Assembly: GCA_022828085.1 (NCBI GenBank)
Contig: JAJEIY010000046.1
Location: 556-64,555, forward strand
Direction of reading: 5' to 3'
Length of the DNA stretch: 64,000 nt
Origin: Acidobacteriota bacterium
GTDB taxonomy: Bacteria > Acidobacteriota > Vicinamibacteria > Marinacidobacterales > Marinacidobacteraceae
The position numbers and the translations under genes were made by a program. The notes beneath the pieces are model-generated. The model was not told the origin of the DNA. It worked only from the letters and a program-made list of their open reading frames with translations, and ran no database searches. Shown piece after piece: positions 2,481 to 64,000 of the stretch (its first letter is position 1; every line of letters begins with the position of its first letter).

Positions 2481-2530
2481 GGTGAACGAAGTCTATGGTC
2501 GGGATGCGGAGTCCGGACGCGGGCCTGCGC

Positions 2531-6353: not shown

Positions 6354-6599
6354 ATGAAACACGAAGATCAGATCGAGACGGAACCCCGCGCGTCGGGCGC
6401 CCCGGAACCGGCAGCCCCGGCTGCGGCGGCGCCCGATCTTGAGGAATTGGTCCGGCGGCACCGGGAACTCGACGAAAAGCTCGAGGAACTCACCAAGCAC
6501 GGCCATCTCTCACCCCTCCAGCAGCACGAAGCCGCGGTCATGAAGAAGCGCAAACTGGCCCTCAAGGACCGGATCGCCGCGCTCGCGGCCTCGTCGTGA
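6354..6599 (+). CDS. DUF465 (YdcH-like) small protein
   Basis: MKHEDQIETE...RHRELDEKLEELTKHGHLSPLQQHEAAVMKKRKLALKDRIAAL resembles YdcH/DUF465. A GGAGG RBS lies 4 nt upstream of the ATG at 6354. Confidence 0.6.
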   Translation: MKHEDQIETEPRASGAPEPAAPAAAAPDLEELVRRHRELDEKLEELTKHGHLSPLQQHEAAVMKKRKLALKDRIAALAASS

Positions 6600-6661
6600 C
6601 GGTCTGGAACGACCGGCTCGCCTGACCTGACGCACGACGCGGTCATCCGCCGCGCAGCCGA

Positions 6662-8115: not shown

Positions 8116-8157
8116 CCGGCCGGAAGGGCTCCGGACGTCCGCGGGCGCCGGCGCCGC

Positions 8158-8652
8158 TCACCGCGTCCACGCGGTGAACTCGCGAATCTGCCAGCGCGGG
8201 TGCGCACCGGGGGCCGGCCCGGCGGCGACCCGTTCAAGACCGATCCGAAAGGCTTCCACCACGTAGCGGTCGGTACCGGTGGCCATGCTGGTCCACTCGG
8301 GAACGAACAGAACGTAGCCGCCGTCCGCGGAGCGGCGAATGGAGGGCGGCCGCTCCTGGTAACCGATCGGCGTGCGGCTCCGGAAGAACCGTTCCAGCCC
8401 GCGCCGCAGCTCATCCCCGGAAGCACTGCGGCGGGTTTCCCCGCTGAGCGCCACGAGCGCCCAACCCGACGGATAGAGACCCTCTAGATGGCCGGCGTCG
8501 GCCTCGTCGAAGGCAAGCCGGAACCGCCCGAGAATCTCCTCGAGATCGTCCGGAGGGGGCTCAACCGGAGCACACATCGTGCACGCGACGATCGTTGCGG
8601 CGAGCAGCGGGACGATCCGGAGCGCGCGCGGCGATCCGTAGACGCCACTCAT
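8158..8652 (-). CDS. hypothetical secreted/lipoprotein (possible NTF2-like fold)
   Basis: Internal start MSGVYGSPRALRIVPLLAATIVACTMC gives a signal peptide. Overlaps the stop of the upstream histidine kinase by 4 nt (ATGA). The tool ORF start at 8892 lies inside the kinase gene. Confidence 0.45.
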   Translation of the reverse strand: MSGVYGSPRALRIVPLLAATIVACTMCAPVEPPPDDLEEILGRFRLAFDEADAGHLEGLYPSGWALVALSGETRRSASGDELRRGLERFFRSRTPIGYQERPPSIRRSADGGYVLFVPEWTSMATGTDRYVVEAFRIGLERVAAGPAPGAHPRWQIREFTAWTR

Positions 8653-12593: not shown

Positions 12594-12656
12594 GCCTCGG
12601 ATAGCCGGCTGTCGGCAGCCCGTGGATCGCCGCTCGCGGGGTTCACGGGGGTTTCG

Positions 12657-12670
12657 CCACAGGCTGCTAG
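12657..12670 (+). promoter_or_regulatory. conserved motif CCACAGGCTGCTAG, 11 nt upstream of the GTG start of the PQQ-propeller gene
   Basis: One of three identical 13-14-mers in the window (see 25987 and 45269). Confidence 0.5.
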
Positions 12671-12681
12671 GGTAAAGGTTC

Positions 12682-51585: not shown

Positions 51586-51709
51586 GTGTGTTTCCAGGGC
51601 GACCGGTGTGTTTCCAGGGCGACCGGTGTGTTTCCAGGGTCACCTGGTGTGTTTCCAGGGTCACCTGGTGTGTTTCCAGGGTCACCTGGTGTGTTTCCAG
51701 GGTCACCGG
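51586..51709. repeat. six tandem iterons: 2 x GTGTGTTTCCAGGGCGACCG (20 bp) + 4 x GTGTGTTTCCAGGGTCACC(T)G (21 bp)
   Basis: Direct tandem repeats read from the sequence (unit starts 51586, 51606, 51626, 51647, 51668, 51689). Confidence 0.85.
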
Positions 51710-51748: not shown

Positions 51749-51808
51749 ACCCCAATTCTTCCCCAATTCCTTCCCAATTCCTCCCATATGGGGGAAGGGA
51801 ATTGGGGA
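51749..51808. repeat. three CCCAATTC direct repeats merging into an imperfect palindrome centred on CATATG (cccaattcctccCATATGggggaagggaattggg): origin/operator-like block
   Basis: Read from the sequence; locally AT-richer; adjacent to the iterons. Confidence 0.6.
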
Positions 51809-52081
51809 AGTGGACGTGCGACGAATTTCCACGCCACCAACACACGGAGCGACGGAGCCGACTTAGCGCGACTTCGTCGCGCGCCTCCGGTCGGGCTCCG
51901 CTTCGCGGCCCCTCCCTCTCCCGCCGCTCGCGCGGCGGGTCAACTACGAACGCGAAAACCGTTGCTGGACCGGCCCTGGGATGCCAGGAACATCACCAGA
52001 GCAGACCGGCGAATTCGCGCCGACGGCCCGGAGTGTGATAGATAACCGGCTCCGAACCCGAACCGGCTCCAAACCCGTGGC

Positions 52082-52109
52082 CACACACACACACACACAC
52101 ACACACACA
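52082..52109. repeat. (CA)14 dinucleotide microsatellite
   Basis: 28 nt of perfect CA repeats, 130 nt upstream of the primase-like gene. Confidence 0.9.
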
Positions 52110-52239
52110 GCAAGACCCGGACCAGGCCACGGCGTATATCCGGGCGCTTTATCCCGCTCCATCTGAACATCTCGCGCTAGTCGCGATCGACCGGGTCAAG
52201 GACCGCCACCCGGAACAGCGAATCCGACAGGCGCGAGCC

Positions 52240-52974
52240 GTGACCGCGCCGAAGTTCCAGGCGTGGCTTCGGGCTCTGAACGCCCAGGGCTACGACATCT
52301 TCGTGTCGATGAATCCCATCAACCCGGAGCGGCGACGCCGCGAGAAGCAGGACGTGGCGAAGGTGCGCCGGCTCCAGCTCGACCTGGACCGCAACGGCCC
52401 CGAGTCCCTGCATCGCGTGCTCGCCGACGTGCATGCGGGTTCCCTGCCCCGCCCCGCGGCTGTGGTCCGGAGCTCACGCCACAACTACCAGGTCATCTGG
52501 CACGCGGATCCGGACGTCTGGACCGCTCCGGAGGCCGAGGACACCATGCGCCGCCTGGCGGCCCGCTACGGGGGCGACTCCTCGGTCGCCGACGTCGCCC
52601 GCGTCATGCGTGTGCCGGGCTTCCGCAACAAGAAACCGGAGCGCGACGACGCGCCCGTGCAGTGGACCGACCACGCTGGCCGGCCGACGCGCCCGGATGC
52701 GTTCGCGCATCTCCCGAAGGTGGAGCATTCCCTGCAGCGCTCCCCCGGCACGGGACGTCAGATCGAGGGCCGCGACACCAGCCAGTCCGCCCGGGACTGG
52801 GCCTATGCCAAGGACCAGCTCCGCAAGGGCGTCCCCCAGGAGAAGGTCATCGCCGCGCTTGAGAAGCGCCGCGCCGGCGAGAAGCACGACCCCCGCTACT
52901 ACGCCGAGCGGACCACCCGCAAGGCATTCCTCGACATCCAGCGTCCGCGCGCGCGGGCGCTGCCATCCCGCTGA
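52240..52974 (+). CDS. RepB'-type DNA primase-like protein (plasmid primase family)
   Basis: Motifs LQLDLD (DxD), SSRHNYQVIWH and GGD..VADVARVMRVPGFRNKK resemble RSF1010 RepB'-like primase hallmarks. Confidence 0.5.
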   Translation: MTAPKFQAWLRALNAQGYDIFVSMNPINPERRRREKQDVAKVRRLQLDLDRNGPESLHRVLADVHAGSLPRPAAVVRSSRHNYQVIWHADPDVWTAPEAEDTMRRLAARYGGDSSVADVARVMRVPGFRNKKPERDDAPVQWTDHAGRPTRPDAFAHLPKVEHSLQRSPGTGRQIEGRDTSQSARDWAYAKDQLRKGVPQEKVIAALEKRRAGEKHDPRYYAERTTRKAFLDIQRPRARALPSR

Positions 52975-52995
52975 AACGCGAAAGGAGCAGCACAC

Positions 52996-53214
52996 ATGGG
53001 AATCAGAGAAATCGAGATCGAGGGCAAACCCGCCCTCAGCGTCGACACCGAGGAGGAGTTCGCTCAGGTCTTCGACCGCGGGCTGCCCATCGAGGCCCCG
53101 CGAGAGGTCGTCGACGCCTTCGGCATCCCCGGCGCCGACGAGAACGGCGACCCCCTCGACACCGACGAGCCTTCGGCTGAGTTTGACGACCTGGCTCTGG
53201 AGGACCAGCCCTAA
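52996..53214 (+). CDS. small highly acidic protein (72 aa; candidate DNA-mimic / anti-restriction protein)
   Basis: Strong RBS AAAGGAG 9 nt upstream. About 35% Asp+Glu (..DTEEEFAQVFD..DENGDPLDTDEPSAEFDDLALEDQP). Confidence 0.5.
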   Translation: MGIREIEIEGKPALSVDTEEEFAQVFDRGLPIEAPREVVDAFGIPGADENGDPLDTDEPSAEFDDLALEDQP

Positions 53215-53248
53215 CCGCGCGGAACCCCGCGCCGCATGAGTAACCAAC

Positions 53249-54334
53249 ATGGCCGAAGCCAAAGCCAACACTCGCGGCCGGGACCGCATCACCGAGTACC
53301 ACCAGCAGTTTGCCGCCGCGATCATCAAGCAGATCGAGGCCGGCACCGCCCCCTGGCAGCGCCCCTGGAAACCCGGCGAGCAGCTCCTTCCCCGTAACCC
53401 CTTCACGGGCAACCGATACACCGGCGGCAACGCCCTCGGCCTCGCGCTCGAGGGCGCGCAACGCGGCTTCGCCGACCATCGCTGGGCCACCTACCGCCAG
53501 ATCAAGGAAGCCGGCGGCCACGTCCGCAAGGGCGAACGCGGCGCACAGATCCTCTACTTCCAGAACCGGAAGCTGCTTGCCAAGAAGGACGACCAGGGCC
53601 GTCAAATGGTCGACTCCGACGGCCGCACCGTCTACGAACGCCCCGACAAACCGCGGCTCCTCGTCCGCGTCTACACCGTCTTCAACGCCGAGCAAGCCGA
53701 AGGACTCGACCTGCCCCCGCGCGACGCGACCGCGCCCGAGTGGCAACGCCACCAGGCGGCCGAAGCCGTGATCGAAACCTCCAACGTCCCGATCAAACAC
53801 GCACCCGGCAATCGCGCCTACTACAGCTCAAGAGCCGACCAGATCGTCCTCCCCGAGCGCCGCCAGTTCCCGTCCGCCGAGCACTACTACGCGACGGCTC
53901 TCCACGAGCTTTCACACGCGTCCGGACACAAGAGCCGGATGGACCGCGAGACCTTCCACAACGCCGTCAAATACCCCACGGGCGGCTTCGGCAGCGCGCC
54001 CTACGCCCGCGAAGAGCTCCGGGCGGAAATCGCCGCCATGATGACCGGCGAGCGCATCGGCATTGGCCACCACCCGCAGGACGGCCACTGCGGCAACAGC
54101 GCGGCGTACGTCGAGAGCTGGATCAAAGCCCTCAAAGACGACCCACGCGAGATCTACCGCGCGGCCGCCGAGGCCACCCGCATCTCCGACTTCCTCGTGA
54201 AGCCGGCCCGCGAGCGGATCCAGGAGATCGGCCGGGACGAGCCGTCCTCACCGGACGCCGCCGAGATGCGCGTTCCCGCGCTCACGCATCCGTCTCCCGC
54301 GCGGCAGCAGCCGGCCATGACGCCCCGACGATGA
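53249..54334 (+). CDS. ardC: ArdC-like antirestriction protein (N-terminal ssDNA-binding DUF1738 domain plus C-terminal zincin-like metalloprotease domain with an intact HExxH)
   Basis: ArdC-N motifs AGTAPWQRPW and RYTGGNALGLAL; C-domain YYATALHELSHASGH. Confidence 0.7.
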   Translation: MAEAKANTRGRDRITEYHQQFAAAIIKQIEAGTAPWQRPWKPGEQLLPRNPFTGNRYTGGNALGLALEGAQRGFADHRWATYRQIKEAGGHVRKGERGAQILYFQNRKLLAKKDDQGRQMVDSDGRTVYERPDKPRLLVRVYTVFNAEQAEGLDLPPRDATAPEWQRHQAAEAVIETSNVPIKHAPGNRAYYSSRADQIVLPERRQFPSAEHYYATALHELSHASGHKSRMDRETFHNAVKYPTGGFGSAPYAREELRAEIAAMMTGERIGIGHHPQDGHCGNSAAYVESWIKALKDDPREIYRAAAEATRISDFLVKPARERIQEIGRDEPSSPDAAEMRVPALTHPSPARQQPAMTPRR

Positions 54335-54395
54335 GCCTCCCATCTCATGCCCAGCCTCCGCGCGATCCCGAAACCCCCCACCAGGAGTAAGAATC

Positions 54396-55532
54396 ATGGC
54401 TGAAGCCACTCCTGCGTGGCGAAGGTTCCTGAGGAACCTGCGCTGGGGCAACCCTGGGAAAAACCGGGCCTGGGACGAGGGGGGAGTCAAGGTCGCCGGG
54501 CCCCCGGCAAGACCACCGACCAAAAAAAACGCCGCCCGCCCGCACCGCCTGGCCGGTAGAAGCCGAGAGTCCCACCTCCACGGCCCGCTGGGCGATTACT
54601 ACCGGATGTTTGCCGAGACCGCCATCCGGCAGATGGAGGAAGGCACCGCGCTCTGGCACTGCCCGTCAGAGGACGGGGAGCGGGTTCTGCCCCGGAACGC
54701 CGTCACTCACCGCGCCTACACCGCCGGCAACGCCATCTACCTGGCCGTCCGCGGCCAGGACCGCGGCTTCCGCGACAACCGCTGGATGACCCTGCAGCAG
54801 ATCAAGGAGGCCGGCGCCCTGCCGCCGGACGGACCCGGCGAACGGATCCTCGTCCGCCACGACCGCAAGGGCCAGAAGCCCGTCTGCCGCACCTCCACCG
54901 TCTACAACGTCGAGCAGGTCCGCGGCCTCAACCTCGAGCGGCGCATGCCGCGTCCGGCGGACTGGCTCGCGGAACGCGGCGCCGACGCTGTCATCGCCGC
55001 TTCCGCCGTCGAGATCAAGCACACCGACGAGCCCTATAGCTGGCCCTACTACCGCGGGAACCGCAACCAGATCGTCCTGCCCAACTGGAAGAAAACCGCG
55101 AGCAGCAACCACTACTACAGCACCGCGCTTCGGAACATAGCCTGCGCATCCACACACGAAGATCGAACGGACCGCTGGCCACCTCCCCGCGAGCTGCTGC
55201 GCGCGGACATCGCCACCATCACGGTCTGCGACCGGTTGGGGCTCGGCTACCAGCCGCTTGCCGAGAATCCGCAGGATATTCGCGACCCGACCGGGGCTCC
55301 CGACTACACGGAGGCCTGGATCAAGGCCCTCAAGGAGGACCCGCGCGAGATGCACCGCGCGGCATCCGAGGGCCACCGCATCGCGGAGCACCTCATCCAG
55401 CCGGCCCGCGCGCAGTTACGGAACATCGTCCGCAAGGCACACGCCGCGCTCGATGCGGAGATGCTCGAAGGCACATCCCCCGCCCGTCCGTCTCCCGTGC
55501 GCCCGCAGCCGGCCATGACGCCCGGACGATGA
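54396..55532 (+). CDS. ArdC-like paralog 2 (HExxH replaced by RNIAC; N-terminus divergent, possible frameshift near an A8 run at 54524-54531)
   Basis: Core FAETAIRQMEEGTALW...YTAGNAIYLAV is homologous to copy 1. The C-domain reads YYSTALRNIACASTHEDR and the C-terminus ..PQPAMTPGR parallels copy 1. Confidence 0.6.
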   Translation: MAEATPAWRRFLRNLRWGNPGKNRAWDEGGVKVAGPPARPPTKKNAARPHRLAGRSRESHLHGPLGDYYRMFAETAIRQMEEGTALWHCPSEDGERVLPRNAVTHRAYTAGNAIYLAVRGQDRGFRDNRWMTLQQIKEAGALPPDGPGERILVRHDRKGQKPVCRTSTVYNVEQVRGLNLERRMPRPADWLAERGADAVIAASAVEIKHTDEPYSWPYYRGNRNQIVLPNWKKTASSNHYYSTALRNIACASTHEDRTDRWPPPRELLRADIATITVCDRLGLGYQPLAENPQDIRDPTGAPDYTEAWIKALKEDPREMHRAASEGHRIAEHLIQPARAQLRNIVRKAHAALDAEMLEGTSPARPSPVRPQPAMTPGR

Positions 55533-55593
55533 GCCTCTCATCCCGTGCGCGGACCCCGCGCGATCCCGAAACCCCCAACCGGGAGTAACCAAC

Positions 55594-56586
55594 ATGGCCG
55601 AAGCCAAAACCTCTCCCTCGAAGCCCGCGATCGACTCGCCCAGCCGCTACTACGGGAAGTTCGCCGAGACCGCCATCCGGCAGATGGAGGAAGGCACCGC
55701 GCCTTGGCAGCGCGCCGCGAAGGCCGGCGAGCGGGTCCTGCCCCGAAACGCCATCACCCACCGCGCCTACACCGGCGGCAACGCCGTCTACCTGCCCGTC
55801 CGCGGCCAGGACCGCGGCTTCACCGACAACCGCTGGATCACCATGCAGCAGATCAAGGAGGCCGGCGCCCAGCCGCCGAAGGGGCCCGGCGAACGCATCC
55901 TCGTCCGCCAGGAACGCGACGGGCAGAAGCCCGTCTGGCGCACCTCCATCGTCTACAACGTCGAGCAGGTCCGCGGCCTCAAGCTCGACCGGCGCCCGCC
56001 GCGGCCGGAATGGCAGGCGCACCGCGGCGCCGACGCCGTCATCGCCGCCTCCGCCGTCGAGATCAAGCACACCGCCGGCGAACACAACTACTACAACAAG
56101 GAGCACGACCAGGTCGTCCTCCCCGAGCGGAAGCAGTTCCGGAGTCCGGAGCACTACTACAGCACCGCGCTGCGGAACATGGCCCACGCCTCCGGACACG
56201 AGAGCCGGATGGACCGCGAGACCTTCAAGCAGACCCACAGCGAGGGTCTGGACGGCGCGGCGCACGGCCGCGAGAAGCTCCGTGTCGAGATCGCCACCAT
56301 GACGGCGGGCGACCGGCTCGGCGTCGGCTACCAGCCGCAGCACGATCCCAGCTACAAGGAGCTCTGGATCAAGGCCCTCAAGGAGGACCCGCGCGAGATG
56401 CACCGCGCAGCCTCCGAGGGCCACCGCATCGCGCGGAACCTCATCAAGCCCGCCCGCGAACAGCTGCGGGGCATCGCCCGCGAAGCGCGCGCCGCGCGCG
56501 ATGCGGAGACGCCCGAACGCGCTCCCCAGGCCCCTCCGAAAGCCATGCCCCAGCGCCAGGTGCCGGCGATGTCCCCCGCGCGCTGA
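55594..56586 (+). CDS. ArdC-like paralog 3 (HExxH replaced by RNMAH)
   Basis: MAEAK.. start and a -35 to -1 upstream region conserved with copies 1 and 2; YYSTALRNMAHASGHESRMDRETF. Confidence 0.65.
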   Translation: MAEAKTSPSKPAIDSPSRYYGKFAETAIRQMEEGTAPWQRAAKAGERVLPRNAITHRAYTGGNAVYLPVRGQDRGFTDNRWITMQQIKEAGAQPPKGPGERILVRQERDGQKPVWRTSIVYNVEQVRGLKLDRRPPRPEWQAHRGADAVIAASAVEIKHTAGEHNYYNKEHDQVVLPERKQFRSPEHYYSTALRNMAHASGHESRMDRETFKQTHSEGLDGAAHGREKLRVEIATMTAGDRLGVGYQPQHDPSYKELWIKALKEDPREMHRAASEGHRIARNLIKPAREQLRGIAREARAARDAETPERAPQAPPKAMPQRQVPAMSPAR

Positions 56587-56595
56587 CCCCCGCCC

Positions 56596-57498
56596 ATGAG
56601 TCGCCGTCCGGAGCCCCGCCATCCCACCAGGCCGGCCGCCCCCCGCGGCCGCGAGCCTTGGCGCACCGGACACCGCCGGGAACACGGTTCCCGGGACGGC
56701 GCTCCCCGCGGCCGGGACCGGCGCGAAGGCGCGCTCGTGGACATCAGCGCCCATCGAGTCGCCGCCTACCAGGACATCGCGGCCGTCCACTTCGACGGCC
56801 ACCCCTACGCCGCGCGCGCCGGCATCAACCGCCTCAAGCGCGAGGGCCTCGTGACCGAGCATCAGGCGGACGGGCCGAACGGCGGCTCCTTCACTGTCCT
56901 GGCGGCGACCAGGAAGGGAGCCGCGGAGGCGCAGGCCGCCGCGGAGAGCCGCGGCGGCGCCGACGGACAGCACTTCTGGAGCGGGATCGGACGCCGCGAG
57001 GACCTCGCCCACGACGTCGCCGTCTACCGCGCCGTGCTTGCCGCCCGGGAAGAGCTCGCCGCCAAGGGAGTCGAGGCGCTCCGGGTCCGGCTCGACGCGG
57101 AGCTGCGCCGCATCGTGGTCCGGCGGAGCGAGCGGGCCCGGGCCCGGGCGGGGCGGAAGGCGGCCGACGCCGAACGGCGGCGCGCGGCCGCCGAGCTCGG
57201 ACTTCCCCACTCCCCGGAGGGGGCGGTGTCGTTCCCGGACGCGCAGCTCGAATACACCCTCGAGGAGGATGCCGGGGGACAGACGTTCGGCCGGGTGAAC
57301 ATCGAGGTCACCACCGAGCACTACCGCGAAGGCGCGATCGCGGCGAAGGCCGCGGCGGGCTTCGCGCTCCACGGCTCGAACGGCAAGGCCGGCCGCCTCA
57401 TCGCGAGAACCATCGCGAAAGCCTTTCGGGAGGCGGCAAGACCACAGCGCAGCGGCGGGGGGAGGGACCCGACACCGCGGGAGCTGATGGAGATCTGA
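56596..57498 (+). CDS. hypothetical protein (Arg/Ala-rich; start uncertain)
   Basis: ORF with coding-like bias between the ArdC triplet and the T4SS genes; no family recognised. Confidence 0.35.
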   Translation: MSRRPEPRHPTRPAAPRGREPWRTGHRREHGSRDGAPRGRDRREGALVDISAHRVAAYQDIAAVHFDGHPYAARAGINRLKREGLVTEHQADGPNGGSFTVLAATRKGAAEAQAAAESRGGADGQHFWSGIGRREDLAHDVAVYRAVLAAREELAAKGVEALRVRLDAELRRIVVRRSERARARAGRKAADAERRRAAAELGLPHSPEGAVSFPDAQLEYTLEEDAGGQTFGRVNIEVTTEHYREGAIAAKAAAGFALHGSNGKAGRLIARTIAKAFREAARPQRSGGGRDPTPRELMEI

Positions 57499-57499
57499 G

Positions 57500-57817
57500 A
57501 TGCATCCCTGGAAAGTGAGCGTCGGCGTCACCGTCGCGGTCACGGCGCTGGCCGTCTTCTTCGGGGCCTCCCACTTCGACTACCTCGCACCCTACCGCCG
57601 GGTCATCGTCACCGAGTACTGGTGGCCGATCACCCTCTACGCGGGCGCGGCCTTCCTCACCGTCGTCATTGCCGTCGCCGGGATCCTGCGGAGCCTGGGG
57701 CTCTACGACATCGGCCGGAAGGTCGACCTCGCGGAGCGCTCGGTTCGCCGCGGCGACGGCGATCCCGACCTTGCCCGCCGCCTTGCCGAACAGGAGCAGG
57801 GCGACTTCACCGACTAA
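57500..57817 (+). CDS. small two-TM membrane protein, hypothetical
   Basis: Two hydrophobic helices (VGVTVAVTALAVFF.., ITLYAGAAFLTVVIAVAGIL); immediately upstream of trbC. Confidence 0.4.
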   Translation: MHPWKVSVGVTVAVTALAVFFGASHFDYLAPYRRVIVTEYWWPITLYAGAAFLTVVIAVAGILRSLGLYDIGRKVDLAERSVRRGDGDPDLARRLAEQEQGDFTD

Positions 57818-57838
57818 CCCAACCCAGGAGGCTCTTCC

Positions 57839-58135
57839 ATGAAGCGCACCACATCCCATATCCGTGCGGCCATCATCCTGGCTGCCGCCGCTGTGCTCGT
57901 GCCGAGCGCCGCGTTCGCCACGATGGCAGGCACCAGCCCCTGGCTGAACGCCGTCTCGGTCCTCGAGACCGCCTTCACCGGCCCGATCGCCCGCGGCCTG
58001 TCCCTGATCGCCATCGTCATCGGCGGGCTGATGTTCGCCTTCGGCGAGGGCGGCTCCAAGAAGGCCCTGGCCGGGATCATCTTCGGCCTCGGCATGGCGA
58101 TGGGCGCCGTGAACTTCCTCGGCTGGCTCTTCTGA
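57839..58135 (+). CDS. trbC: TrbC/VirB2-family conjugative pilin
   Basis: Signal peptide plus two hydrophobic segments and a Gly-rich C-terminus (IAIVIGGLMFAFGEGG...IIFGLGMAMGAVNFLGWLF); RBS GGAGG. Confidence 0.7.
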   Translation: MKRTTSHIRAAIILAAAAVLVPSAAFATMAGTSPWLNAVSVLETAFTGPIARGLSLIAIVIGGLMFAFGEGGSKKALAGIIFGLGMAMGAVNFLGWLF

Positions 58136-58203
58136 CCCGTCCATACGGTATTGATCGTATGACGCCATACGGTATTGACCGTGCATACGGTCGGGCTTGA
58201 ATC

Positions 58204-58494
58204 GTGACCGGCAAGCGCGCCTGGCACGGCCACCCCGCCCTGAGCCGGCCGCTCACCATCATGGGGGTCGAGAGACGGTGGTTCCTGCTGTCTCTCACCC
58301 TCGGCCTGGCGATGTGGAACGCCATCAACTCGCTCGTCACGGGCGGCCTGATCTTCGGCACCCTCTACGCCGCCGGCTGGCTCGCCTGGCGCCAGGACCC
58401 GAACATGCTGTCCATCGTCGCGGCGAGCGCCACGAGCCGCGTCCGCTACGACGCCGGCAAGCCGAGCCTGTGGCACGTCGACCTCCTCGAATGA
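58204..58494 (+). CDS. VirB3/TrbD-family T4SS protein
   Basis: ~96 aa, two TM segments, overlapping the virB4 start (ATGA) in the typical virB3-virB4 arrangement. Confidence 0.6.
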   Translation: MTGKRAWHGHPALSRPLTIMGVERRWFLLSLTLGLAMWNAINSLVTGGLIFGTLYAAGWLAWRQDPNMLSIVAASATSRVRYDAGKPSLWHVDLLE

Positions 58495-60926
58495 ACCTCC
58501 AGGCCGAGCAGCAGGACTTTGCCGCGGCGGGCGCGCTCGCCGACGAGCTGCCCTACTGGGGCTGGCTGAAGGAACATCCCTTCTGCCTCACCCGCGCCGG
58601 CGAGTTCCTGGCGGCCGCCGAACTGGAGCCGGCCGTCCTGGACGGCCGCACTCCCGAGCAGCTGGACCAGGTGCTGAACCGCTGGCAGCGCCTGCTCTCC
58701 TCCCTCGACACCAGCACCCGGCTCTACTTCTACCTGCTCCGTCGCCCCGGCGTCCTGGGCGAGGTCACCGGCCTCGACGGCGTCGCCGCCCTCTCCCAGC
58801 GGAACCGGCGCGACTTCCTCCTGTCCCGGATCCACGACCTCCGGACGTTCGTCGTCTGGAGCCACAACCCCGGCCTCGAGCGGGCGGGTCGCTCCGGCCC
58901 CCGGGGCAACCACTGGCTGGTCGAGTACGCGCGCAACTGGCTCCGGGCGCGCCGTAACCCCCACGAGTCCGTCTTTCTCCTCGCCGAGGTGCGCCAGGCC
59001 GCCACCCGCTTCCGCCAGCTCGTCGAGGCCTCCGCCGCCCTCGCCAACGAGGTCACCCCGATCCGCCTCCTGCCGGCGGACGAGGCGACTCCCTTCCTGA
59101 GCGAACTCGTCAACCGTCCCGGCCTCGAGTGGCACGGCGACGCCGCGGCCAGCGCCCTCAACTGGCGGCTGCCGCTCTCCGAACTCGAAGCCGAGCGCCA
59201 ACACCTCCGGCTCGACGGCGAGCCCGTCATCCTCTACTCCCTCCTCTCGCCGCCGGCCACCGCCCGCGCCAACCTCCTCTACGAACTCGCCCGCATGGAG
59301 GCGCGGTTCACCCTGTCTCTCGAGTGGCGTCCCTACGCCCTCGAGGCCGCCCGGCGCAAGATCCGGAGCGCGCAGCGCCACTACTTCTCGAAGCGCTACT
59401 CCATGGCGGCGCACGTGCAGGACACCGAGGGCACGGCTTCGGCCATGGTCGATGCCGCCGCCGACGCCGAGGCCGACCGCCTCGGCGGCGCCCTCGTCGA
59501 GCTCGAGGCCGACGGCGTCGGCTACGGCGACGTATCGCTAACGATCGCGCTGCACGGTCCGCTCGCGGAAACGGAGCGCCAGGACGCTGAACTGCGCCGG
59601 ATCTTCTCCGGCTGCGACGCCAAGCTCATCCGCGAGGGCTACGGCCAGCTCGCCAGCTGGTTCGCGCGCATGCCGGCCATGCCGCGCAAGCGGCAGATCC
59701 GTTCCGTCTTCGCGAGCGCGGGCGTCGCCTCCTGCCTGGCGCCACTCTTCGGGCCCCCGCGCGGCCACCGGGTCAGCAAGCACCTCTCCCGGCCGGCTTT
59801 GGCCACGTTCGAGACTCCCTGGAAGACCTCGTATCACTACGACCTCTTCGCGGGGGCCGATGTCGGGCACACGCTCATCCTCGGCGCCACCGGCGCGGGC
59901 AAGAGCTTCACGCTCAACTTCCTGCTCGTCCAGGCCCTCCAGTACCAGCCGCGGGTCCTCATCCTGGACCTCGGCGGCTCCTACCGGTGGCTCACCCAGT
60001 TCCTGGGCGGCGGCTACCTCCAACTCGCCCCCGAGCGCGCCGACGGCGCGCTCGCCCTCAAGCCCTTCTCCCTGCCCTCCGGCGAGCGGACCTTCCAGTT
60101 CCTCACCGGCTGGATCACCCGCCTTCTCCGCATCGGCGGCTACGAACTCACCGGACGGGATCCGTCCGAGATCCGGAGCCGCGTCGAGGACCTCTACGCC
60201 TTCTCCGAGGCCCAGCGCTCCCTGTCCGCGTTCGTCTCCTCCCTGCCGAAGGGGATGTGGCCGGCCATGAGCCGCTGGCACGGCAACGGCGCCTGGGCCG
60301 CTTACTTCGACAACCCGGGCGCCGACGAACTGCAGCTCCAGGACTGGCAGGTCATCGACCTCGCCGGCGCCGCAGAGCACGAGGACCTCTGCGAGGCCGC
60401 GCTGTTCTACCTCCTCGAGCGCATGCGCCTCGCCCTCGAGAACCCGGACGAGGCGGCCCGCGTCAAGCTGATGGTCGTCGACGAGGCCTGGCGGTACCTC
60501 CGGGACCCCGCCATCCTCGCCTACCTCGCGGAGGCGGCGAAGACCTGGCGGAAGCGCAACGCCGCCCTCGTCCTCGCCACCCAGTCCGCGATCGACGTCA
60601 CCGCCAGCCCGGCGGCGAAGGGGCTCCTCGAGTCCCTCCCGACGAAGCTCTTCCTGGCCAACCCCGACCTCCCCGACCAGGTCGGCGAGATCTTCCGCCT
60701 CAACGAGACGGAGATGGCCACCATCCGCCAGCTCGTCCCCAAGCAGGAGCTCTACCTGCGCCGGTCCCAGTCCGCCGGCGTCCTCCGCCTCCACGTCGAC
60801 CCCGAGAGCTACTGGCTCTACACGTCCTCTCCCATCGACTCCGAGCGGCGCGCCGAGGCGGTCGCGGCGCACGGCCTCACCGGCGGCCTCGCCGCCCTCG
60901 CCAGACAAACGGAGCTCTCCACATGA
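58491..60926 (+). CDS. VirB4/TrbE T4SS ATPase
   Basis: Walker A GATGAGKSF, Walker B LMVVDEAW and CagE/TrbE-like domains. Internal ATG at 58491; the tool ORF start at 58197 is over-extended. Confidence 0.85.
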   Translation: MNLQAEQQDFAAAGALADELPYWGWLKEHPFCLTRAGEFLAAAELEPAVLDGRTPEQLDQVLNRWQRLLSSLDTSTRLYFYLLRRPGVLGEVTGLDGVAALSQRNRRDFLLSRIHDLRTFVVWSHNPGLERAGRSGPRGNHWLVEYARNWLRARRNPHESVFLLAEVRQAATRFRQLVEASAALANEVTPIRLLPADEATPFLSELVNRPGLEWHGDAAASALNWRLPLSELEAERQHLRLDGEPVILYSLLSPPATARANLLYELARMEARFTLSLEWRPYALEAARRKIRSAQRHYFSKRYSMAAHVQDTEGTASAMVDAAADAEADRLGGALVELEADGVGYGDVSLTIALHGPLAETERQDAELRRIFSGCDAKLIREGYGQLASWFARMPAMPRKRQIRSVFASAGVASCLAPLFGPPRGHRVSKHLSRPALATFETPWKTSYHYDLFAGADVGHTLILGATGAGKSFTLNFLLVQALQYQPRVLILDLGGSYRWLTQFLGGGYLQLAPERADGALALKPFSLPSGERTFQFLTGWITRLLRIGGYELTGRDPSEIRSRVEDLYAFSEAQRSLSAFVSSLPKGMWPAMSRWHGNGAWAAYFDNPGADELQLQDWQVIDLAGAAEHEDLCEAALFYLLERMRLALENPDEAARVKLMVVDEAWRYLRDPAILAYLAEAAKTWRKRNAALVLATQSAIDVTASPAAKGLLESLPTKLFLANPDLPDQVGEIFRLNETEMATIRQLVPKQELYLRRSQSAGVLRLHVDPESYWLYTSSPIDSERRAEAVAAHGLTGGLAALARQTELST

Positions 60927-61813
60927 TCCCCGGCTTCCCCGCGATCCCGCCCCGTCTCCTCCTCTTCCTGCTCGTGTTCCTCCTCTGCCAGGGGCTCGCA
61001 CCGCTCGCGGCGCCCCAGGACGGGCACATCCTCCGGCTCGACGACACCCCCGAGGACACCGTCTGGCGGCTCCAGACCCGCACCCGCCACACCACCGTCA
61101 TCACCCTCCCGCCGCACGAGACCATCCTGGACTTCGTCGTCGGCGACGCCGAGTACTGGCACCTCTCCGGCAGCGCCAACGTCGCCTTCCTCAAGCCGAT
61201 CGCGGACGATGCCGCGACCAACATCGCGCTGGTCTGCGAGTCCGGACGGATCTACACCTTCCTCGTCGCCGAGTCCGCAGAAGAGGAGCCCCACCTCGTC
61301 GTCCGCTTCCCGGCCGCCGGGCCGGACGACGGCACCACCGACGTCCCCGCGCCGACGGCCCGCGGCGCCCACGAGCCGGCATTCGTCGCCCGCTCCCGGG
61401 TCCAGTCCTACCAAGCCATGGCCACCCAGGCGCGCGCCGAGGTGCAGGCCGCCCGGGCCGACGCCGAAGAGCAGATCGACGCGGCCCGCCAGGCCGCCGC
61501 GGACGAGATCGACGCCTACCGCGCGGCGTATCCGCTCCGGATCGAGTTCCCCTACACGCTCGACAAGAAAGCCCGCGAGTGGCCCTTCCTGGTCGAGGCC
61601 ATGTGGCACGACGGCCAGTTCACCTACCTCCGGAGCCGCGCCCAGGAGTCCCCCGCGCTCTACGAGCGCAAGGACGGCGAGCCCTCCCTCGTCCCCTACG
61701 ACCTCACCGAGACCGGCCTCTACGTCGTGCGCCGCATCATCGGCGAAGGCTGGCTTCAACTCGGCAGGGAACGCGCCCGCTGGCGCTTCACGCCCCCGGA
61801 CCCCCTGCCGTGA
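60923..61813 (+). CDS. secreted VirB9/TrbG-like N-domain protein with an alpha-helical C-terminal half
   Basis: Signal peptide, then FVVGDAEYWHLSGSANVAFLKPIADDAATNIALVCESGRIYTFLV, which resembles the VirB9 N-domain signature (GD..W....N.F.KP.....TNL.V.T..R.Y.F.L). Overlaps the virB4 stop (ATGA). Confidence 0.45.
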   Translation: MIPGFPAIPPRLLLFLLVFLLCQGLAPLAAPQDGHILRLDDTPEDTVWRLQTRTRHTTVITLPPHETILDFVVGDAEYWHLSGSANVAFLKPIADDAATNIALVCESGRIYTFLVAESAEEEPHLVVRFPAAGPDDGTTDVPAPTARGAHEPAFVARSRVQSYQAMATQARAEVQAARADAEEQIDAARQAAADEIDAYRAAYPLRIEFPYTLDKKAREWPFLVEAMWHDGQFTYLRSRAQESPALYERKDGEPSLVPYDLTETGLYVVRRIIGEGWLQLGRERARWRFTPPDPLP

Positions 61814-62109
61814 ACATCGCTCACCGCTCCCCGCGCCGCTCGGGAACCCCCCTCGCGGAGACGGCCGGTCCTCCAGACCGTCCGGAGAGCGCCAGCCTTT
61901 CGCCCGGATGCCGGCGGCCACGGTGCGCAAACGCGCCTGAGACGCCTCCTGAGCGCACGGCCGGCCGGACGGCCCGCGTGCCGCGTACACCCCGGAAACG
62001 GCGAGAGACGCCCGTTTTCGGGCCTTCCCGGGCCATTTCCGACCGAAGCCGTGCGTCCGGAAGCCTCCGGAGCCCGCCTTTCGCGCCCGCGCCTGTCTGA
62101 CATCCCCCC

Positions 62110-63534
62110 ATGACCATTTGGAAACGCATCGCCGCCAGCCCCGCCGGCGCACCCCGCCGGCTCTCCCCGCTCGCCCTCGGCGCGATCCTCCTGGCAGAGG
62201 GCTACGCCTCGCTGGGGGCCGAGATCCTGGCGCTGCGGCGCATCGCCCCCTGGGCCGGGACCTCGGTGGACGTCACCACCGTGCTCCTCGCCGCCTACCT
62301 GGCCGCCCTCGCCGGCGGCTACCGCCGCGGCGGGCGCCTCGCCCGTGACGGCGACCCCCGCCCGCGGCTCGCGTTCCGCCTGACGCTCGCCGCGGCCCTC
62401 GCCGCCTTCTGGCTGTCCGAGCCCGGCATCCTGCTGGCCTTCGGCCTGCCGCTCCCCCCGCTGGTCCAGGCGGCCTTCTACGCGGTCGTGGGCATCGCTC
62501 CCGTCGGCTGGCTCCTCGCGGAGTGCGTTCTGCTGGCCCACGCCTGCGCGCCCACCGGCGAACGCTCGGCGACCGCCGGCCGCGTCTTCGCCCTCTCCAC
62601 CGTCGGGAACGTCGCGGGGGCGCTCGCCACGACGTTCCTGCTGTTGCGCTTTCTCGGTACCGCCGCCGCCGCACTCGTCCTCTGCGCAGGCCTGCTGGGC
62701 GCGGCCCTGCTGGCCTTCCGGCGCAGCGTCCCGCTGGCCGCCTGCGCGGCCGTTGCCGTCTTCCTCGCCGTCGACCTCTGGACCGAGGCGTCCGTCTACG
62801 TCGAGCGCAACGCCTACGCCGACTATCGCATTGCGGAGCGCGACGGCGGGCGGGTCCTCGAACTCAACCAGCAATGGGCCTCCCGCCATGACGCCGCCGG
62901 CAAGGGTTGGCCCTATGTCGAGCTCCTCGAGGCGACCCTGTGCGAGGCCGGCGAGACGCGTGTGCTGGTGCTCGGCGCCGGCGGGATGACCATCGGCCAG
63001 GGCGCCCCCTGCGCGCTCGAGCCGGTCTTCCTCGACCTCGACCCGGACCTGGAGCGCATCGCCTCCGACTTCCTGGACGTCCCCGAAGGCGCCGCGGGGA
63101 CCTTCCATGCCCGCGACGCGCGCGCCTTCCTCCGGGACGACCCCGGAGGCTGGGACGCGATCGTCGCCGATGCCTTCACCAACTGGCGCTCCGTTCCCCG
63201 CCACCTTCTCACCGTCGAGTTCTACGGCCTGGCCCGCTCCCGCCTCCGTCCCGGCGGCTCGCTCTACGTCAACCACGTCGCCCACGGCGATCCGGCCGGC
63301 GAGCGGCTGTTCCTCACCCGCGTCGAACGCACCCTCCGCAGCGTGTTCGCCGGCTGCGCCATGCGCGAGACCGGTCTGCCGCCCGGCACCGGCTGGCACG
63401 CCGCCGCCACCATCCCCCGCGGCCTCCTCTTCCGCTGCCTCCGGTCGGATCTCGACGGGGACCGCGCCGTCTACTCCGACGCTTTGCCGCGGGCTGACCT
63501 CGACCGCGGCCTCCGGCTGGGAGCCCCCGACTGA
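62110..63534 (+). CDS. polytopic membrane protein fused to a spermidine-synthase-like (class I SAM-MTase fold) domain
   Basis: ~7 N-terminal TM helices, then VLVLGAGGMTIGQG..DLDPD..F..WDAIVADAF..YGLARSRLRPGGSLYVNHV, typical of the SpeE-like fold. Confidence 0.6.
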   Translation: MTIWKRIAASPAGAPRRLSPLALGAILLAEGYASLGAEILALRRIAPWAGTSVDVTTVLLAAYLAALAGGYRRGGRLARDGDPRPRLAFRLTLAAALAAFWLSEPGILLAFGLPLPPLVQAAFYAVVGIAPVGWLLAECVLLAHACAPTGERSATAGRVFALSTVGNVAGALATTFLLLRFLGTAAAALVLCAGLLGAALLAFRRSVPLAACAAVAVFLAVDLWTEASVYVERNAYADYRIAERDGGRVLELNQQWASRHDAAGKGWPYVELLEATLCEAGETRVLVLGAGGMTIGQGAPCALEPVFLDLDPDLERIASDFLDVPEGAAGTFHARDARAFLRDDPGGWDAIVADAFTNWRSVPRHLLTVEFYGLARSRLRPGGSLYVNHVAHGDPAGERLFLTRVERTLRSVFAGCAMRETGLPPGTGWHAAATIPRGLLFRCLRSDLDGDRAVYSDALPRADLDRGLRLGAPD

Positions 63535-63540
63535 TGCCCG

Positions 63541-64000
63541 ACTGGAAGCAGATCGCCAGCAAGCCCGCCGGGGCGCTACCCGCCAACCTCGTCACCAAGG
63601 TCGGCGTCCTCCTCATCACCGTCCTCCTGCTCGCCCTCATCCTCAGCGCCTCGCTCTCCTCCGACGACCCCGAGGACGTCACCGGCGCCGCCCCCGGCGA
63701 AGCCGACGAGCCGGTCGTCGCTCCCGGCATGGCACGCGGCCTCCGGTCCCAGATCGAGCAACAGGAGCGCCAACAGGAATACCAGCAGCTGATCGAGGAA
63801 CGCGACGCGGAACGACAGCGGATCCGCGACGCGCTCGGCATCACCGGGGGCCGCCCGTCAACCGGGTCCGACGCGGCGCCTGCCGAGCTTCCCGCGGTCG
63901 ACCCCGATACCGGGGAGGAGCTCACCCCCGAGGAATACGAACTGCGGCAGGCCATCCGGCTCGAAGAGCTCGAACGCCAGCTCCGCTCGCTCCGGACCCA
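63541..64000 (+). CDS. TrbI/VirB10-like protein, N-terminal part (TM anchor plus Pro/Glu-rich and coiled region); truncated by window end
   Basis: TM VGVLLITVLLLALIL, then an acidic/Pro-rich linker and a coiled coil, in the position expected for trbI. Confidence 0.4.

Follow-up and report, generated by a model that had tools for sequence, protein, structure and literature searches.

The T4SS operon and the gene within it

The window analysed here, the whole 64,000-nucleotide stretch of acidobacterial DNA, ends inside a T4SS operon of an integrative conjugative element (ICE). The genes in this part of the operon are all encoded on the forward strand, and a gene for a 474-aa membrane enzyme lies immediately upstream of trbI:

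57839-58135, + strand: TrbC/VirB2 pilin (profile match)
58204-58494, + strand: VirB3 (profile match)
58491-60926, + strand: VirB4 (profile match)
60923..61813, + strand: VirB9/CagX, the upstream neighbour (PF03524, 8e-25; TIGR02781, 5.8e-18)
61814..62109, + strand: 296-bp non-coding spacer upstream of the gene (alignment to the related element L004)
62110..63534, + strand: gene for a 474-aa two-domain inner-membrane enzyme, 'fused MFS/spermidine synthase' (NF037959; open reading frame, HMM match, homologues, dN/dS)
63534..64000, + strand: 5' part of trbI/virB10, running past the window end (the full-length homologue in the related element L006 matches PF03743 at 7e-36)

The order trbC-virB3-virB4-(VirB9-like)-gene-trbI, as given in the initial annotation, is borne out by these coordinates and profile matches. 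The stop codon of the gene overlaps the start of trbI (TGATG, with trbI from 63534). L004 positions 1-5685 align with window positions 56509-62158 at 87% identity, and judging from this alignment the spacer at 61814..62109 is the ordinary virB9-trbI spacer of the element family, not a segment imported with the gene. Rfam, promoter and terminator scans of the spacer and the gene returned no match.

The open reading frame at 62110-63534 has a GC3 of 0.92, as expected of coding sequence in DNA of ~70% GC, and a dN/dS of 0.16-0.30 against homologues (0.16-0.19 among translocated copies, 0.23-0.30 against other copies); by these measures it is a real gene under purifying selection. Searches with the 474-aa protein recovered 225 close homologues and, at a threshold of E<=1e-3, 5118 cluster representatives, with homologues of 445-490 aa and the same architecture in Betaproteobacteria and Gammaproteobacteria. 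The whole protein matches NCBIfam NF037959 ('fused MFS/spermidine synthase') with 102.9 bits (E 1.8e-29; curated cutoff 40), and a score of 60.7 bits for the C-terminal part on its own shows that the membrane and Rossmann parts both contribute. By this match it is a full-length member of NF037959, a widespread and annotated family that we take to be the same as COG4262 ('predicted spermidine synthase with an N-terminal membrane domain'). Pfam gave no match at E<=10 to the whole protein or to either half, and PHROGs gave none to the protein. PADLOC returned a weak match to mad2, the MADS N6-adenine DNA methyltransferase (27.5 bits over the SAM-binding segment), which we judged to be generic Rossmann similarity and no evidence of a defence role. 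A search of the accessible literature found no characterised member of NF037959 and nothing relevant that ties a spermidine synthase to conjugation.

Membrane domain and relation to VirB6/TrbL

The AlphaFold2 model of the protein (pLDDT 91.2, pTM 0.78) divides into a helical part, residues 20-235, made up of seven long helices and a short one, and an alpha/beta domain after it. The first of these parts is:

62167..62814, + strand: membrane domain, residues 20-235, with six helices resembling about one MFS half and then helix 7 (AlphaFold2, Foldseek, loop charges)

When the N-terminal domain is modelled alone (pLDDT 90.2) and compared with the PDB by Foldseek, 46 of the 50 best matches are MFS transporters; they extend over ~190-250 columns, about one six-helix half, with weak E-values (0.08-0.4) and probabilities of 0.9-1.0. 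A motif-A-like basic loop (YRRGGRLARDGDPRPR) connects helices 2 and 3. Going by the model, the N-terminal domain is half-MFS-like and not TrbL-like.

The initial annotation had placed the gene in the slot usually occupied by the polytopic VirB6/TrbL and had suggested that it might replace VirB6 as an inner-membrane channel subunit. The protein does resemble VirB6/TrbL (PF04610) in being polytopic, located in the inner membrane and encoded in a T4SS operon, and the window itself shows no trbL. The window, however, ends before trbL. L006, which matches window positions 52131-64000 at 98.2% identity, continues past the window end with TrbI, a 305-aa gene, TrbL (PF04610, E 5.7e-10; 13795-14793 of L006, downstream of trbI), VirB8, VirD4/TraG and VirB11, and the close relatives L007 and L008 also have TrbL. 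The downstream gene content is taken from these three relatives (95-98% identical) and not from the window contig itself. In them a canonical trbL lies elsewhere in the operon, which is the first half of what the initial annotation had named as evidence against its own proposal. VirB6/TrbL and the 474-aa protein are also without sequence, profile or fold similarity: PF04610 is not hit, hhalign against TrbL of the same element family gives a probability of 0.06% (E 0.76), and the fold search brings up MFS transporters but not VirB6, so that the profile comparison and structure prediction suggested as a check came out against the proposal. With trbL and virB8 both downstream in near-identical relatives, replacement of VirB6/TrbL is so improbable that we set it aside. 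A T4SS that had traded VirB6 for an enzyme would have been striking; that original framing is wrong. The sequence comparisons are best explained by an accessory gene, carried by an acidobacterial (Bryobacterales-type) ICE, that does not substitute structurally for VirB6/TrbL.

Translocation into the start of trbI

The 5' end of the gene differs in origin from the remainder:

62110..62154, + strand: chimeric 5' end, first ~15 codons (MTIWKRIAASPAGAP), a diverged copy of the trbI start (N-terminal comparison, L006 and L004 alignment blocks, junction alignment)

This segment meets the original body of the gene near 62153-62160, inside a 13-bp C/G-rich repeat at 62139-62170 detected by Tandem Repeats Finder. 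In sister elements the gene sits after virB8, and the order of blastn blocks between L006 and L004, L003 and L009 indicates that it has moved. From these comparisons, the cassette demonstrably moved into the trbI start in the window lineage, capturing the first ~15 codons of trbI, and purifying selection, as measured by dN/dS, is maintained since this move. Because these codons and the upstream spacer have been taken over, and because the stop codon overlaps the trbI start, the gene is expressed from within the T4SS operon. The clean transfer of a cassette to the trbI start provides an example of operon remodelling by microhomology.

Catalytic domain

The C-terminal half of the protein is a transferase domain of the SpeE fold, with the following features:

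62815..63531, + strand: SpeE-fold (class I Rossmann) transferase domain, residues 236-474 (Foldseek, profile versus PDB, hhalign to NHMT)
62965..62997, + strand: nucleotide-binding glycine loop LVLGAGGMTIG (alignment to B. subtilis SpeE 1iy9 and Thermus 1uir)
63034..63048, + strand: DLDPD motif, residues 309-313, with D309 and D311 corresponding to SpeE 'DID' (alignment, column counts)
63151..63177, + strand: WDAIVADAF, residues 348-356, with D354 equivalent to the SpeE catalytic Asp (alignment, column counts)
63355..63438, + strand: cysteine pair C416 (63355-63357) and C443 (63436-63438), a candidate disulfide (model, column counts)

The best 50 Foldseek matches of the whole model in the PDB are all spermidine synthases or other aminopropyltransferases, and the fold is matched to SpeE of Thermus (1uir/3anx), B. 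subtilis (1iy9) and T. maritima (1inl), including the N-terminal beta-hairpin sub-domain. In the profile comparison with the PDB, Thermus SpeE 1uir is matched at E 4e-16. The three motifs picked out in the initial annotation are present at residues 288-296 (GAGGMTIG, as LGAGGMTIG), 309-313 (DLDPD) and 348-356 (WDAIVADAF). Its description of about seven TM helices followed by a complete SpeE-like fold agrees with the AlphaFold2 model and Foldseek as to helices and fold, but not as to completeness, since the protein has neither the GxG(D/E)G loop acid nor the second acid of the active site.

Conservation of the catalytic residues and cysteines was counted over 60 family sequences. The catalytic Asp (D354) is invariant (60/60), Tyr269 is kept in 57/60, and D309 and D311 are present in 58/60 and 54/60, respectively; the 474-aa protein retains counterparts of the catalytic Asp and Tyr of SpeE, and also of its DID and D-G motifs. 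Whether the catalytic Asp residues of SpeE are conserved, a question put by the initial annotation, is answered differently for the two acids, since the second acid of the D-x-x-(D/E)-P motif is replaced by Thr357 here and by Ser/Thr in the family. Gly292 occupies the site of the dcSAM-binding Asp/Glu of true SpeE and is Gly in 58/60 members. The published criterion for dcSAM binding is an acidic residue, Asp or Glu, at the (D/E) position of GxG(D/E)G (PMC10349129). The two cysteines lie in strands E415-421 (C416) and E437-444 (C443) of the AlphaFold2 model and are gained or lost together, with both in 55/60 members, neither in 5/60 and a single one in 0/60. We know of no such pair in canonical SpeE.

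These features bear on whether the protein could be a membrane-bound polyamine aminopropyltransferase, whose cytoplasmic catalytic domain would make spermidine or another polyamine like it from dcSAM for export by the MFS-like domain, the gene being host-fitness cargo. The SpeE fold, the conserved Asp354 and Tyr269 and the family name all agree with such a role, as do weak hits to the NCBIfam SpeE equivalogs PRK03612 (40.8 bits) and PRK00811 (18.1 bits). Both scores, however, fall far short of their curated cutoffs (472 and 260), and PF01564 is not matched at E<=10. Unlike SpeE, the protein has a membrane domain, carries Gly in place of the loop acid to which the aminopropyl amine of dcSAM binds, and lacks the second, substrate-binding acid; no S-adenosylmethionine decarboxylase gene occurs in the neighbourhoods listed, and the cysteine pair and loop charges suggest an extracytoplasmic catalytic domain. 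We regard an aminopropyltransferase as decidedly unlikely. Since the acidic residue that holds dcSAM is missing, a SAM-dependent methyltransferase is the more likely of the two activities.

Comparison with SpeE-fold methyltransferases

[quoted passage not shown] The N-termini that NHMT targets are created by signal-peptide removal (PMC10349129), and we infer that it acts on secreted proteins once the signal peptide has been cleaved. In the comparisons below, NHMT is represented by a sequence reconstructed from a machine-read supplement, in which 13 blocks were repaired.

Both proteins comprise a seven-helix N-terminal membrane domain (~215-235 residues) followed by a SpeE-fold domain, and both lack the acid of the GxG(D/E)G loop (Ile322 in NHMT, Gly292 here). 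Their catalytic domains are homologous (hhalign probability 99.1-99.5%, E 1e-18 to 1e-21), the catalytic domain of the 474-aa protein being about equally near to Thermus SpeE (62 bits) and NHMT (57 bits). The cysteine pair is common to both families, as C416 and C443 align with C445 and C467 of NHMT, and both cysteines are present in 31/31 fungal homologues. The two proteins differ in the VFTGGA segment of NHMT, which is D-A-F-T-N-W in the 474-aa protein, and in setting, NHMT belonging to the fungal ER and the 474-aa protein to a bacterial mobile element. Their membrane domains differ as well: that of the 474-aa protein is half-MFS-like, whereas the NHMT authors found no MFS-like fold for theirs (PMC10349129). 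Homology between the two TM domains was considered and rejected, hmmsearch being not significant and the profile-profile (hhalign) probability 0.2%. The shared architecture may therefore be convergent, and for the same reason the 474-aa protein is treated as the closest working analogue of NHMT, not as a member of that family.

A second, distant relative is the C-terminal domain of METTL13 (PDB 5wcj), which has the SpeE fold, carries out SAM-dependent methylation of the N-terminal amine of eEF1A and gives a weak but significant profile match to the 474-aa protein (4.9e-4). METTL13 is soluble, cytosolic and eukaryotic, and has no membrane domain. Together, METTL13 and fungal NHMT are precedents among SpeE-fold N-terminal methyltransferases for assigning methyltransferase activity to the 474-aa protein.

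Topology

Basic residues are distributed unequally among the loops of the membrane domain, with a mean K+R count of 3.5, 1.9 and 2.0 in loops 2, 4 and 6 versus 0.5 and 0 in loops 3 and 5. Helix 7 spans residues 206-235, of which the first 13 are wholly apolar, and helix 7a is essentially uncharged. Three features, namely the loop charges, the apolar helix 7 and the strictly co-varying cysteine pair that recurs in NHMT, speak for a topology in which the N-terminus would be inside, the chain would cross the membrane seven times and the catalytic domain would be periplasmic; the action of NHMT on secreted proteins fits this orientation. The membrane domain would serve to anchor the enzyme and possibly also to supply its cofactor. 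In the alternative topology, helix 7 of the model may not cross the membrane and the catalytic domain may be cytoplasmic. The bacterial periplasm is not known to host any working SAM-dependent enzyme or to contain available SAM, which counts against a periplasmic catalytic domain.

Distribution on mobile elements

Homologues at 43-99% identity lie in mobile-element DNA in all 18 places examined, with conjugation genes (T-type or F-type) nearby in 14/18 and no T4SS genes within 10 kb in 4/18. At the loci of the 66-99% homologues, TraG and VirB11 are found within 10 kb in 13/13 and ArdC in 10/13. The 50-54% homologues occur among topoisomerase, SLT, DarT-NADAR, DNA methyltransferase and transposase genes, and a 46% homologue adjoins a RepB primase gene in an F-type T4SS locus. 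In PLSDB, 12 plasmids carry a homologue, 7 of them conjugative, and the gene adjoins ssb-recT-exo in 3/6 inspected. Vibrio tubiashii p123 and Marinobacter pMAQU02 carry the gene in hosts available in culture. Remote homologues are found next to ssb-recT-exo on gammaproteobacterial MOBH plasmids or in ordinary chromosomal contexts. The sub-clade at >=43% identity to the 474-aa protein (at least 43%) has WLLAECVLLAH where the chromosomal clade has WLLGQTVPILTNL.

Among related elements the gene occupies at least four different places, and we know of no counterpart in the standard VirB and Trb gene sets. This variable placement fits a cargo or accessory gene. Of the options raised in the initial annotation, cargo is thus the one that fits best (variable position, translocation, chromosomal homologues); recruitment of an enzymatic activity to the secretion system agrees with the operonic, coupled arrangement and with the recurrence of the gene on conjugative elements that differ in mating-pair-formation type, but nothing ties the gene specifically to the channel.

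Membrane-bound enzymes that modify pilins are known in conjugation, TraX acetylating F-pilin and TraF cyclising RP4 pilin. A T4SS-dedicated enzyme of this kind might modify the pilin or another periplasmic T4SS component, for instance by N-terminal methylation after signal-peptide cleavage, and be needed for efficient transfer. Two arrangements, that of the window and the ancestral one after virB8, place the gene in an operon with T4SS genes and couple its translation to theirs, homologues co-occur with T-type, F-type and G-type conjugation systems, and the N-termini on which NHMT acts likewise arise by signal-peptide removal (PMC10349129). Nevertheless, the position of the gene relative to the mating-pair-formation genes is not fixed, many elements carrying it in the primase, ssb or ArdC region; the places lacking a T4SS gene within 10 kb and the remote homologues in chromosomes without a T4SS also speak against dedication. 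The predicted mature pilin N-terminus is not His, and the small ORFs that overlap the gene start or follow the gene include no conserved partner or substrate, being unrelated between arrangements and without NCBIfam match. On balance, an enzyme dedicated to the T4SS is unlikely.

The neighbours of the gene in several elements (SSB, ArdC and RepB-primase genes, and ssb-recT-exo on MOBH plasmids) would instead suit a gene of the early-transferred region that serves establishment or anti-defence and works alongside ArdC, SSB and primase in the new host. In L018 the gene is surrounded by those for DarT-NADAR, DNA methyltransferases and dCTP deaminase. Anti-restriction factors, however, are not known to include polytopic membrane enzymes, the mad2 match is weak and generic, and the gene of the window sits in the middle of a T4SS operon, all of which makes such a role highly improbable.

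Proposed function and implications

We read the 474-aa protein as an accessory enzyme and, probably, as a methyltransferase whose catalytic domain faces the periplasm. The enzyme would bind an adenosyl cofactor, and Asp354 together with Tyr269 would activate an amine-type nucleophile, as in SpeE-fold enzymes; the substrate would be an exported protein or envelope component in the periplasm. The gain to the element may lie in modification of the pilus or T4SS, in surface exclusion or in establishment. The explanation that we consider best, and rather probable, is that of an accessory gene of an acidobacterial ICE, not a structural VirB6/TrbL substitute, encoding an enzyme that is more likely a methyltransferase than a polyamine synthase.

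A more specific version, which we put forward tentatively and think unlikely as a whole, makes the protein the bacterial counterpart of NHMT, a periplasm-facing SAM-dependent methyltransferase whose half-MFS domain brings SAM across the inner membrane. Conjugative elements from several phyla, and with several mating-pair-formation types, would carry the gene so that an exported protein or a component of the envelope is methylated. The half-MFS domain might homodimerise into a full 12-helix MFS-like unit and pass SAM through the inner membrane to the active site, and candidate targets of methylation would include a pilin, a T4SS part or a surface receptor. If true, no SAM-dependent enzyme working outside the bacterial cytoplasm would, to our knowledge, have been described before, and conjugation would gain a new class of accessory function.

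The large family annotated 'spermidine synthase' is probably misnamed, and one branch of it travels with conjugative elements in Acidobacteriota and marine Gammaproteobacteria. If the periplasmic orientation holds, the means by which SAM reaches the periplasm becomes a question, and such an orientation would also hint that conjugation is tied to a modification, post-translational or of the envelope, that has so far gone unrecognised.

The SpeE-like gene and its neighbours

The ORF of the initial annotation at 62110-63534 (+) encodes a 474-residue spermidine synthase-like (SpeE-like) protein, with the quoted motifs at residues 288-296, 309-313 and 348-356 and with the neighbour order as described. 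It is a real gene, with a GC3 (0.92) like that of other genes of the ~70% GC window, 225 close homologues, matches (E<=1e-3) to 5118 representatives in a library of 50%-identity clusters, and dN/dS of 0.16-0.30 against homologues.

Features of the window around the SpeE-like gene
53249-54334, 54396-55532, 55594-56586: three tandem ArdC-type genes (ArdcN + zincin-like metallopeptidase)
57839-58135: TrbC pilin
58204-58494: VirB3
58491-60926: VirB4
60923-61813: VirB9/CagX
61814-62109: non-coding spacer, 296 bp
62110-63534 (+): SpeE-like gene
63534 onward: trbI, its start overlapping the SpeE-like stop (TGATG); the window ends 467 bases into it

Upstream of the T4SS genes lie the ArdC genes, a RepB-type primase gene, a Replic_Relax-like gene and a gene for a 105-aa membrane protein. 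In the related locus L006, two of the ArdC proteins are 46% and 63% identical to the third, and the related locus L008 has two copies instead of three. The Replic_Relax-like protein (300 aa, borderline at 25.2 bits vs a cutoff of 25.3) and the membrane protein, encoded at 56596-57817 5' of trbC, are kept in all T-type relatives; no canonical relaxase was identified within the stretches examined. Directly 5' of the RepB-primase gene (52240-52974), a tandem-repeat cluster at 51586-51707, 51750-51785 and 52044-52109 (21 bp x5.9 with 97% match, 11 bp x3.3, 17 bp x2, and (CA)14) could represent either an iteron-like region or the element's left boundary; genes further 5' (MiaB-like, ParA, ParB, flavin reductase, PEGA protein) look chromosomal.

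The SpeE-like gene adds a member to a known, uncharacterised family. The protein has no Pfam match even at E<=10, and matches NCBIfam NF037959 ('fused MFS/spermidine synthase') with 102.9 bits (cutoff 40); the C-terminal half by itself scores 60.7 bits, so the membrane half contributes too. AlphaFold2, given 45 homologues, yields a high-confidence full-length model (pLDDT 91.2, pTM 0.78), in which seven long helices (20-49, 53-77, 83-101, 117-145, 152-182, 184-206, 209-235) and a short helix (104-111) precede an alpha/beta domain. This model's best 50 Foldseek matches in the PDB are all spermidine synthases or other aminopropyltransferases. A separate N-terminal model (residues 1-236; pLDDT 90.2, pTM 0.86) matches MFS transporters in 46 of the top 50 ranks, with alignments spanning about one six-helix half at weak E values (0.08-0.4) and probabilities of 0.9-1.0. 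Helices 2 and 3 are joined by a basic loop, YRRGGRLARDGDPRPR, in which we see a likeness to MFS motif A.

Relationship to VirB6/TrbL

The initial annotation placed the gene in the slot of VirB6/TrbL, the polytopic T4SS channel protein, and considered that it might replace it. The premise is weak: to our knowledge, neither VirB nor Trb gene order normally has VirB6/TrbL between VirB9 and VirB10. Across the T4SS and SpeE-like genes, three loci (L006, L007 and L008) match the window collinearly at 95-98% DNA identity, and L006 continues beyond the window end with TrbI (PF03743), a 305-aa protein, a canonical TrbL (PF04610, E 5.7e-10), VirB8 (PF04335), three small or unknown genes, VirD4/TraG and VirB11. 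The element thus encodes a VirB6 itself, as seen in near-identical relatives and not in the window's own contig, and replacement is refuted. Profile-profile comparison of the N-terminal domain with these TrbL proteins gave a probability of 0.06%, and VirB6 is absent from the top 50 Foldseek matches of the N-terminal model. The earlier observation is confirmed in part, for the gene and its surroundings.

Translocation into the trbI start

In the sister elements L003, L004 and L009 the SpeE-like protein is 77-80% identical, and the gene order is VirB9, TrbI, ~306 aa, TrbL, VirB8, 92-97 aa, the SpeE-like gene and, further on, TraG and VirB11. Aligning L006 with L004 by blastn, block by block, reveals that the SpeE-like gene was cleanly translocated.

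Matching blocks of L006 and L004
L006 4379-10041, L004 1-5675: all through the first ~13 trbI codons
L006 10062-11414, L004 10029-11384: SpeE-like gene
L006 11422-12794, L004 5632-6950: trbI
L006 14353-15563, L004 8595-9810: virB8 and small ORF
L006 15856-21419, L004 11396-16931: downstream genes

The window SpeE-like protein starts with MTIWKRIAASPAGAP, which is similar to the beginning of TrbI (L004, MSTWKRLVSKPAGALP; window, MPDWKQIASKPAGALP) and unlike the starts in L003 (MTRPPALRPF...) and L004 (MTRLPPLRPL...). The junction between trbI-derived codons and the original gene body, near 62153-62160, falls inside a 13-bp C/G-rich direct repeat (62139-62170, CCCCGCCGGCGCA x2.5), which suggests translocation by recombination through microhomology. 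The chimeric gene is intact in at least four assemblies (dN/dS 0.16-0.19). The preceding spacer (61814-62109) is the ordinary virB9-trbI spacer, with ~87% identity in sister elements and no Rfam, sigma-70-like promoter or intrinsic terminator match; at ~300 bp, it is unusually long inside a T4SS operon.

Association with mobile elements

TraG/VirD4 and VirB11 are encoded within 10 kb at every one of the 13 longer loci whose homologues are 66-99% identical; ArdC accompanies them at 10 of these loci. The SpeE-like gene occurs in at least four arrangements (after virB8, in the virB9-trbI gap, after RepB primase, and after SSB), and several Bryobacterales genomes have two or three copies per contig. 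Between elements that share only 46-54% identity in VirB4, TraG and VirB11 (L002-L014 vs the window), the SpeE-like protein retains 66-81% identity; the gene is either a cassette exchanged between elements or unusually constrained. In the closest elements it is less conserved (77-80%) than VirB4 (94-95%), which suggests cassette exchange.

More distant homologues and their surroundings
P0121 (54%), L015: RadC, TnpB, topoisomerase, SLT
P0296 (52%), L019 and L020: topoisomerase, transposases, DNA methyltransferase-HNH gene
P0284 (50%), L018: SLT, DarT-NADAR/YAcAr giant protein, DNA methyltransferases, dCTP deaminase
P0307 (46%), L016: after RepB primase; F-type locus (TraC_F_IV, TraU, TraG_N)

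The L018 neighbourhood (1476-9971 and 12511-13685) is a dense nucleic-acid-modification or anti-defence region, encoding a 1082-aa NADAR-DarT1/YAcAr/DUF4326 protein, split N6/N4 DNA methyltransferase genes, a PAPS-reductase-like gene, the dCTP deaminase and two 2OG-Fe(II) oxygenases.

In PLSDB, a 30-34% homologue is present on 12 plasmids (7 of them conjugative), six of which were inspected. It adjoins ssb-recT-exo (lambda-exonuclease) on Vibrio tubiashii p123 and Microbulbifer pTHAF38_a. A CFI-box-CTERM protein (NF041770) follows it on Marinobacter pMAQU02, pTHAF38_a and Marinobacter SBY-1 and is absent on p123; a PD-(D/E)XK nuclease follows on pMAQU02 (Cas4-like in this sole copy scanned), pTHAF38_a and p123, and the gene in this position on SBY-1 is annotated only as hypothetical. 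The trio of homologue, CFI-box-CTERM protein and nuclease is conserved on gammaproteobacterial MOBH conjugative plasmids (L025 8293-10645, pMAQU02; L026 7296-9652, pTHAF38_a; L028 7650-10053; L023 8296-10652, p123).

Homologues of 31-33% identity in Ferribacterium and a related metagenomic betaproteobacterium have syntenic, ordinary chromosomal contexts, and the neighbours of a Legionella homologue, on a 365-kb replicon, are genes of housekeeping type. Together with the recurrence on mobile elements, this marks the SpeE-like gene as an accessory gene that recurs on conjugative elements and derives from a wider, chromosomal family, rather than a constant component of the secretion apparatus; among the options of the initial annotation, accessory or cargo gene fits best.

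Predicted chemistry

The SpeE enzymes of Thermus and B. subtilis give the best alignments to the family profile; active-site features were mapped from these alignments and counted over 60 diverse family members.

SpeE active-site features in the family
Y269: 'YHE' Tyr, 57/60
G292: GxG(D/E)G Asp/Glu position, Gly in 58/60
D309/D311: 'DID' motif, 58/60 and 54/60
D336: 'DG' Asp, 57/60
D354: catalytic Asp, 60/60
T357: second active-site acid position, Ser/Thr in 47/60

Of the SpeE active-site acids, D354 is retained but the second is replaced by T357. SpeE also needs the loop acid to bind decarboxylated SAM, whereas the SpeE-like protein has Gly (G292) instead. AN4663 of Aspergillus nidulans, annotated as a spermidine synthase, was shown to be a methyltransferase via its missing loop acid (PMC10349129), and METTL13, a human SpeE-fold N-terminal methyltransferase, is a weak profile match (4.9e-4). 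No SAM decarboxylase gene is present in any neighbourhood listed. These points favour methyl transfer: by sequence and analogy, SAM-dependent methylation of an amine-type nucleophile appears more likely than polyamine synthesis, and the spermidine-synthase annotation is a probable misannotation.

Comparison with fungal NHMT

[quoted passage not shown] A seven-helix membrane domain (1-215) precedes its SpeE-fold domain. The ER-resident enzyme uses the N-terminal histidine of secreted LPMOs as its methylation target and depends on the membrane domain for this activity (PMC10349129). Its sequence (558 aa) was rebuilt from Supplementary Note 3 by repairing 13 machine-reading indels; I322, E340 and VFTGEA at 389-394 agree with the paper (PMC10349129), and it retrieves a 95% identical Aspergillus protein. 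In profile-profile comparison using 30 fungal NHMT homologues, the catalytic domains match with a probability of 99.1-99.5% (E 1e-18 to 1e-21), whereas similarity of the membrane domains is not detectable (0.2%). C416 and C443 of the SpeE-like protein align with NHMT C445 and C467, invariant in 31/31 fungal sequences. In the bacterial family both are present in 55/60 members, both absent in 5/60, and never found singly (0/60); with their placement in model strands E415-421 and E437-444, this is the pattern of a candidate disulfide.

Predicted topology

Mean K+R of loops between membrane helices (60 family members)
Loop 2 (72-87): 3.5
Loop 3 (103-118): 0.5
Loop 4 (146-158): 1.9
Loop 5 (181-184): 0
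Loop 6 (204-208): 2.0

These counts place the end of helix 6 in the cytoplasm. A very short turn leads into helix 7, whose initial 13 residues are essentially uncharged on every face; the helix runs on as an amphipathic stretch into the first beta-strand. Its uniformly apolar start would be buried in the bilayer, not lying on the bilayer surface. The simplest reading of sequence and model, which we hold to be fairly probable, is a cytoplasmic N-terminus, seven crossings and a periplasmic catalytic domain. This orientation agrees with the candidate C416-C443 disulfide, and with NHMT, since the N-terminus that NHMT modifies should not be formed until the signal peptide is cleaved. The obvious objection is SAM availability, as we know of no SAM available in the periplasm. 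Given its half-MFS fold and the conserved polar residues within its helices (E30, S34, E38, R43, T56, Y71, S163, T164), the membrane domain might, speculatively, supply SAM, perhaps as a dimer. The most far-reaching reading, a periplasmic SAM-dependent methyltransferase carried by conjugative elements, seems to us rather unlikely.

Possible functions for the element

A T4SS-related enzymatic role of the SpeE-like protein is possible. For the element, it may modify the pilin or a different exported component of the T4SS, alter the cell surface so as to provide exclusion or phage avoidance, or act in establishment. In our reading, the predicted mature pilin N-terminus is Thr, not His, and the neighbouring ORFs compared include no conserved partner or obvious substrate. 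The recurrence of the gene on conjugative elements, its likely misannotation and its NHMT-like features are worth noting, though no major surprise.
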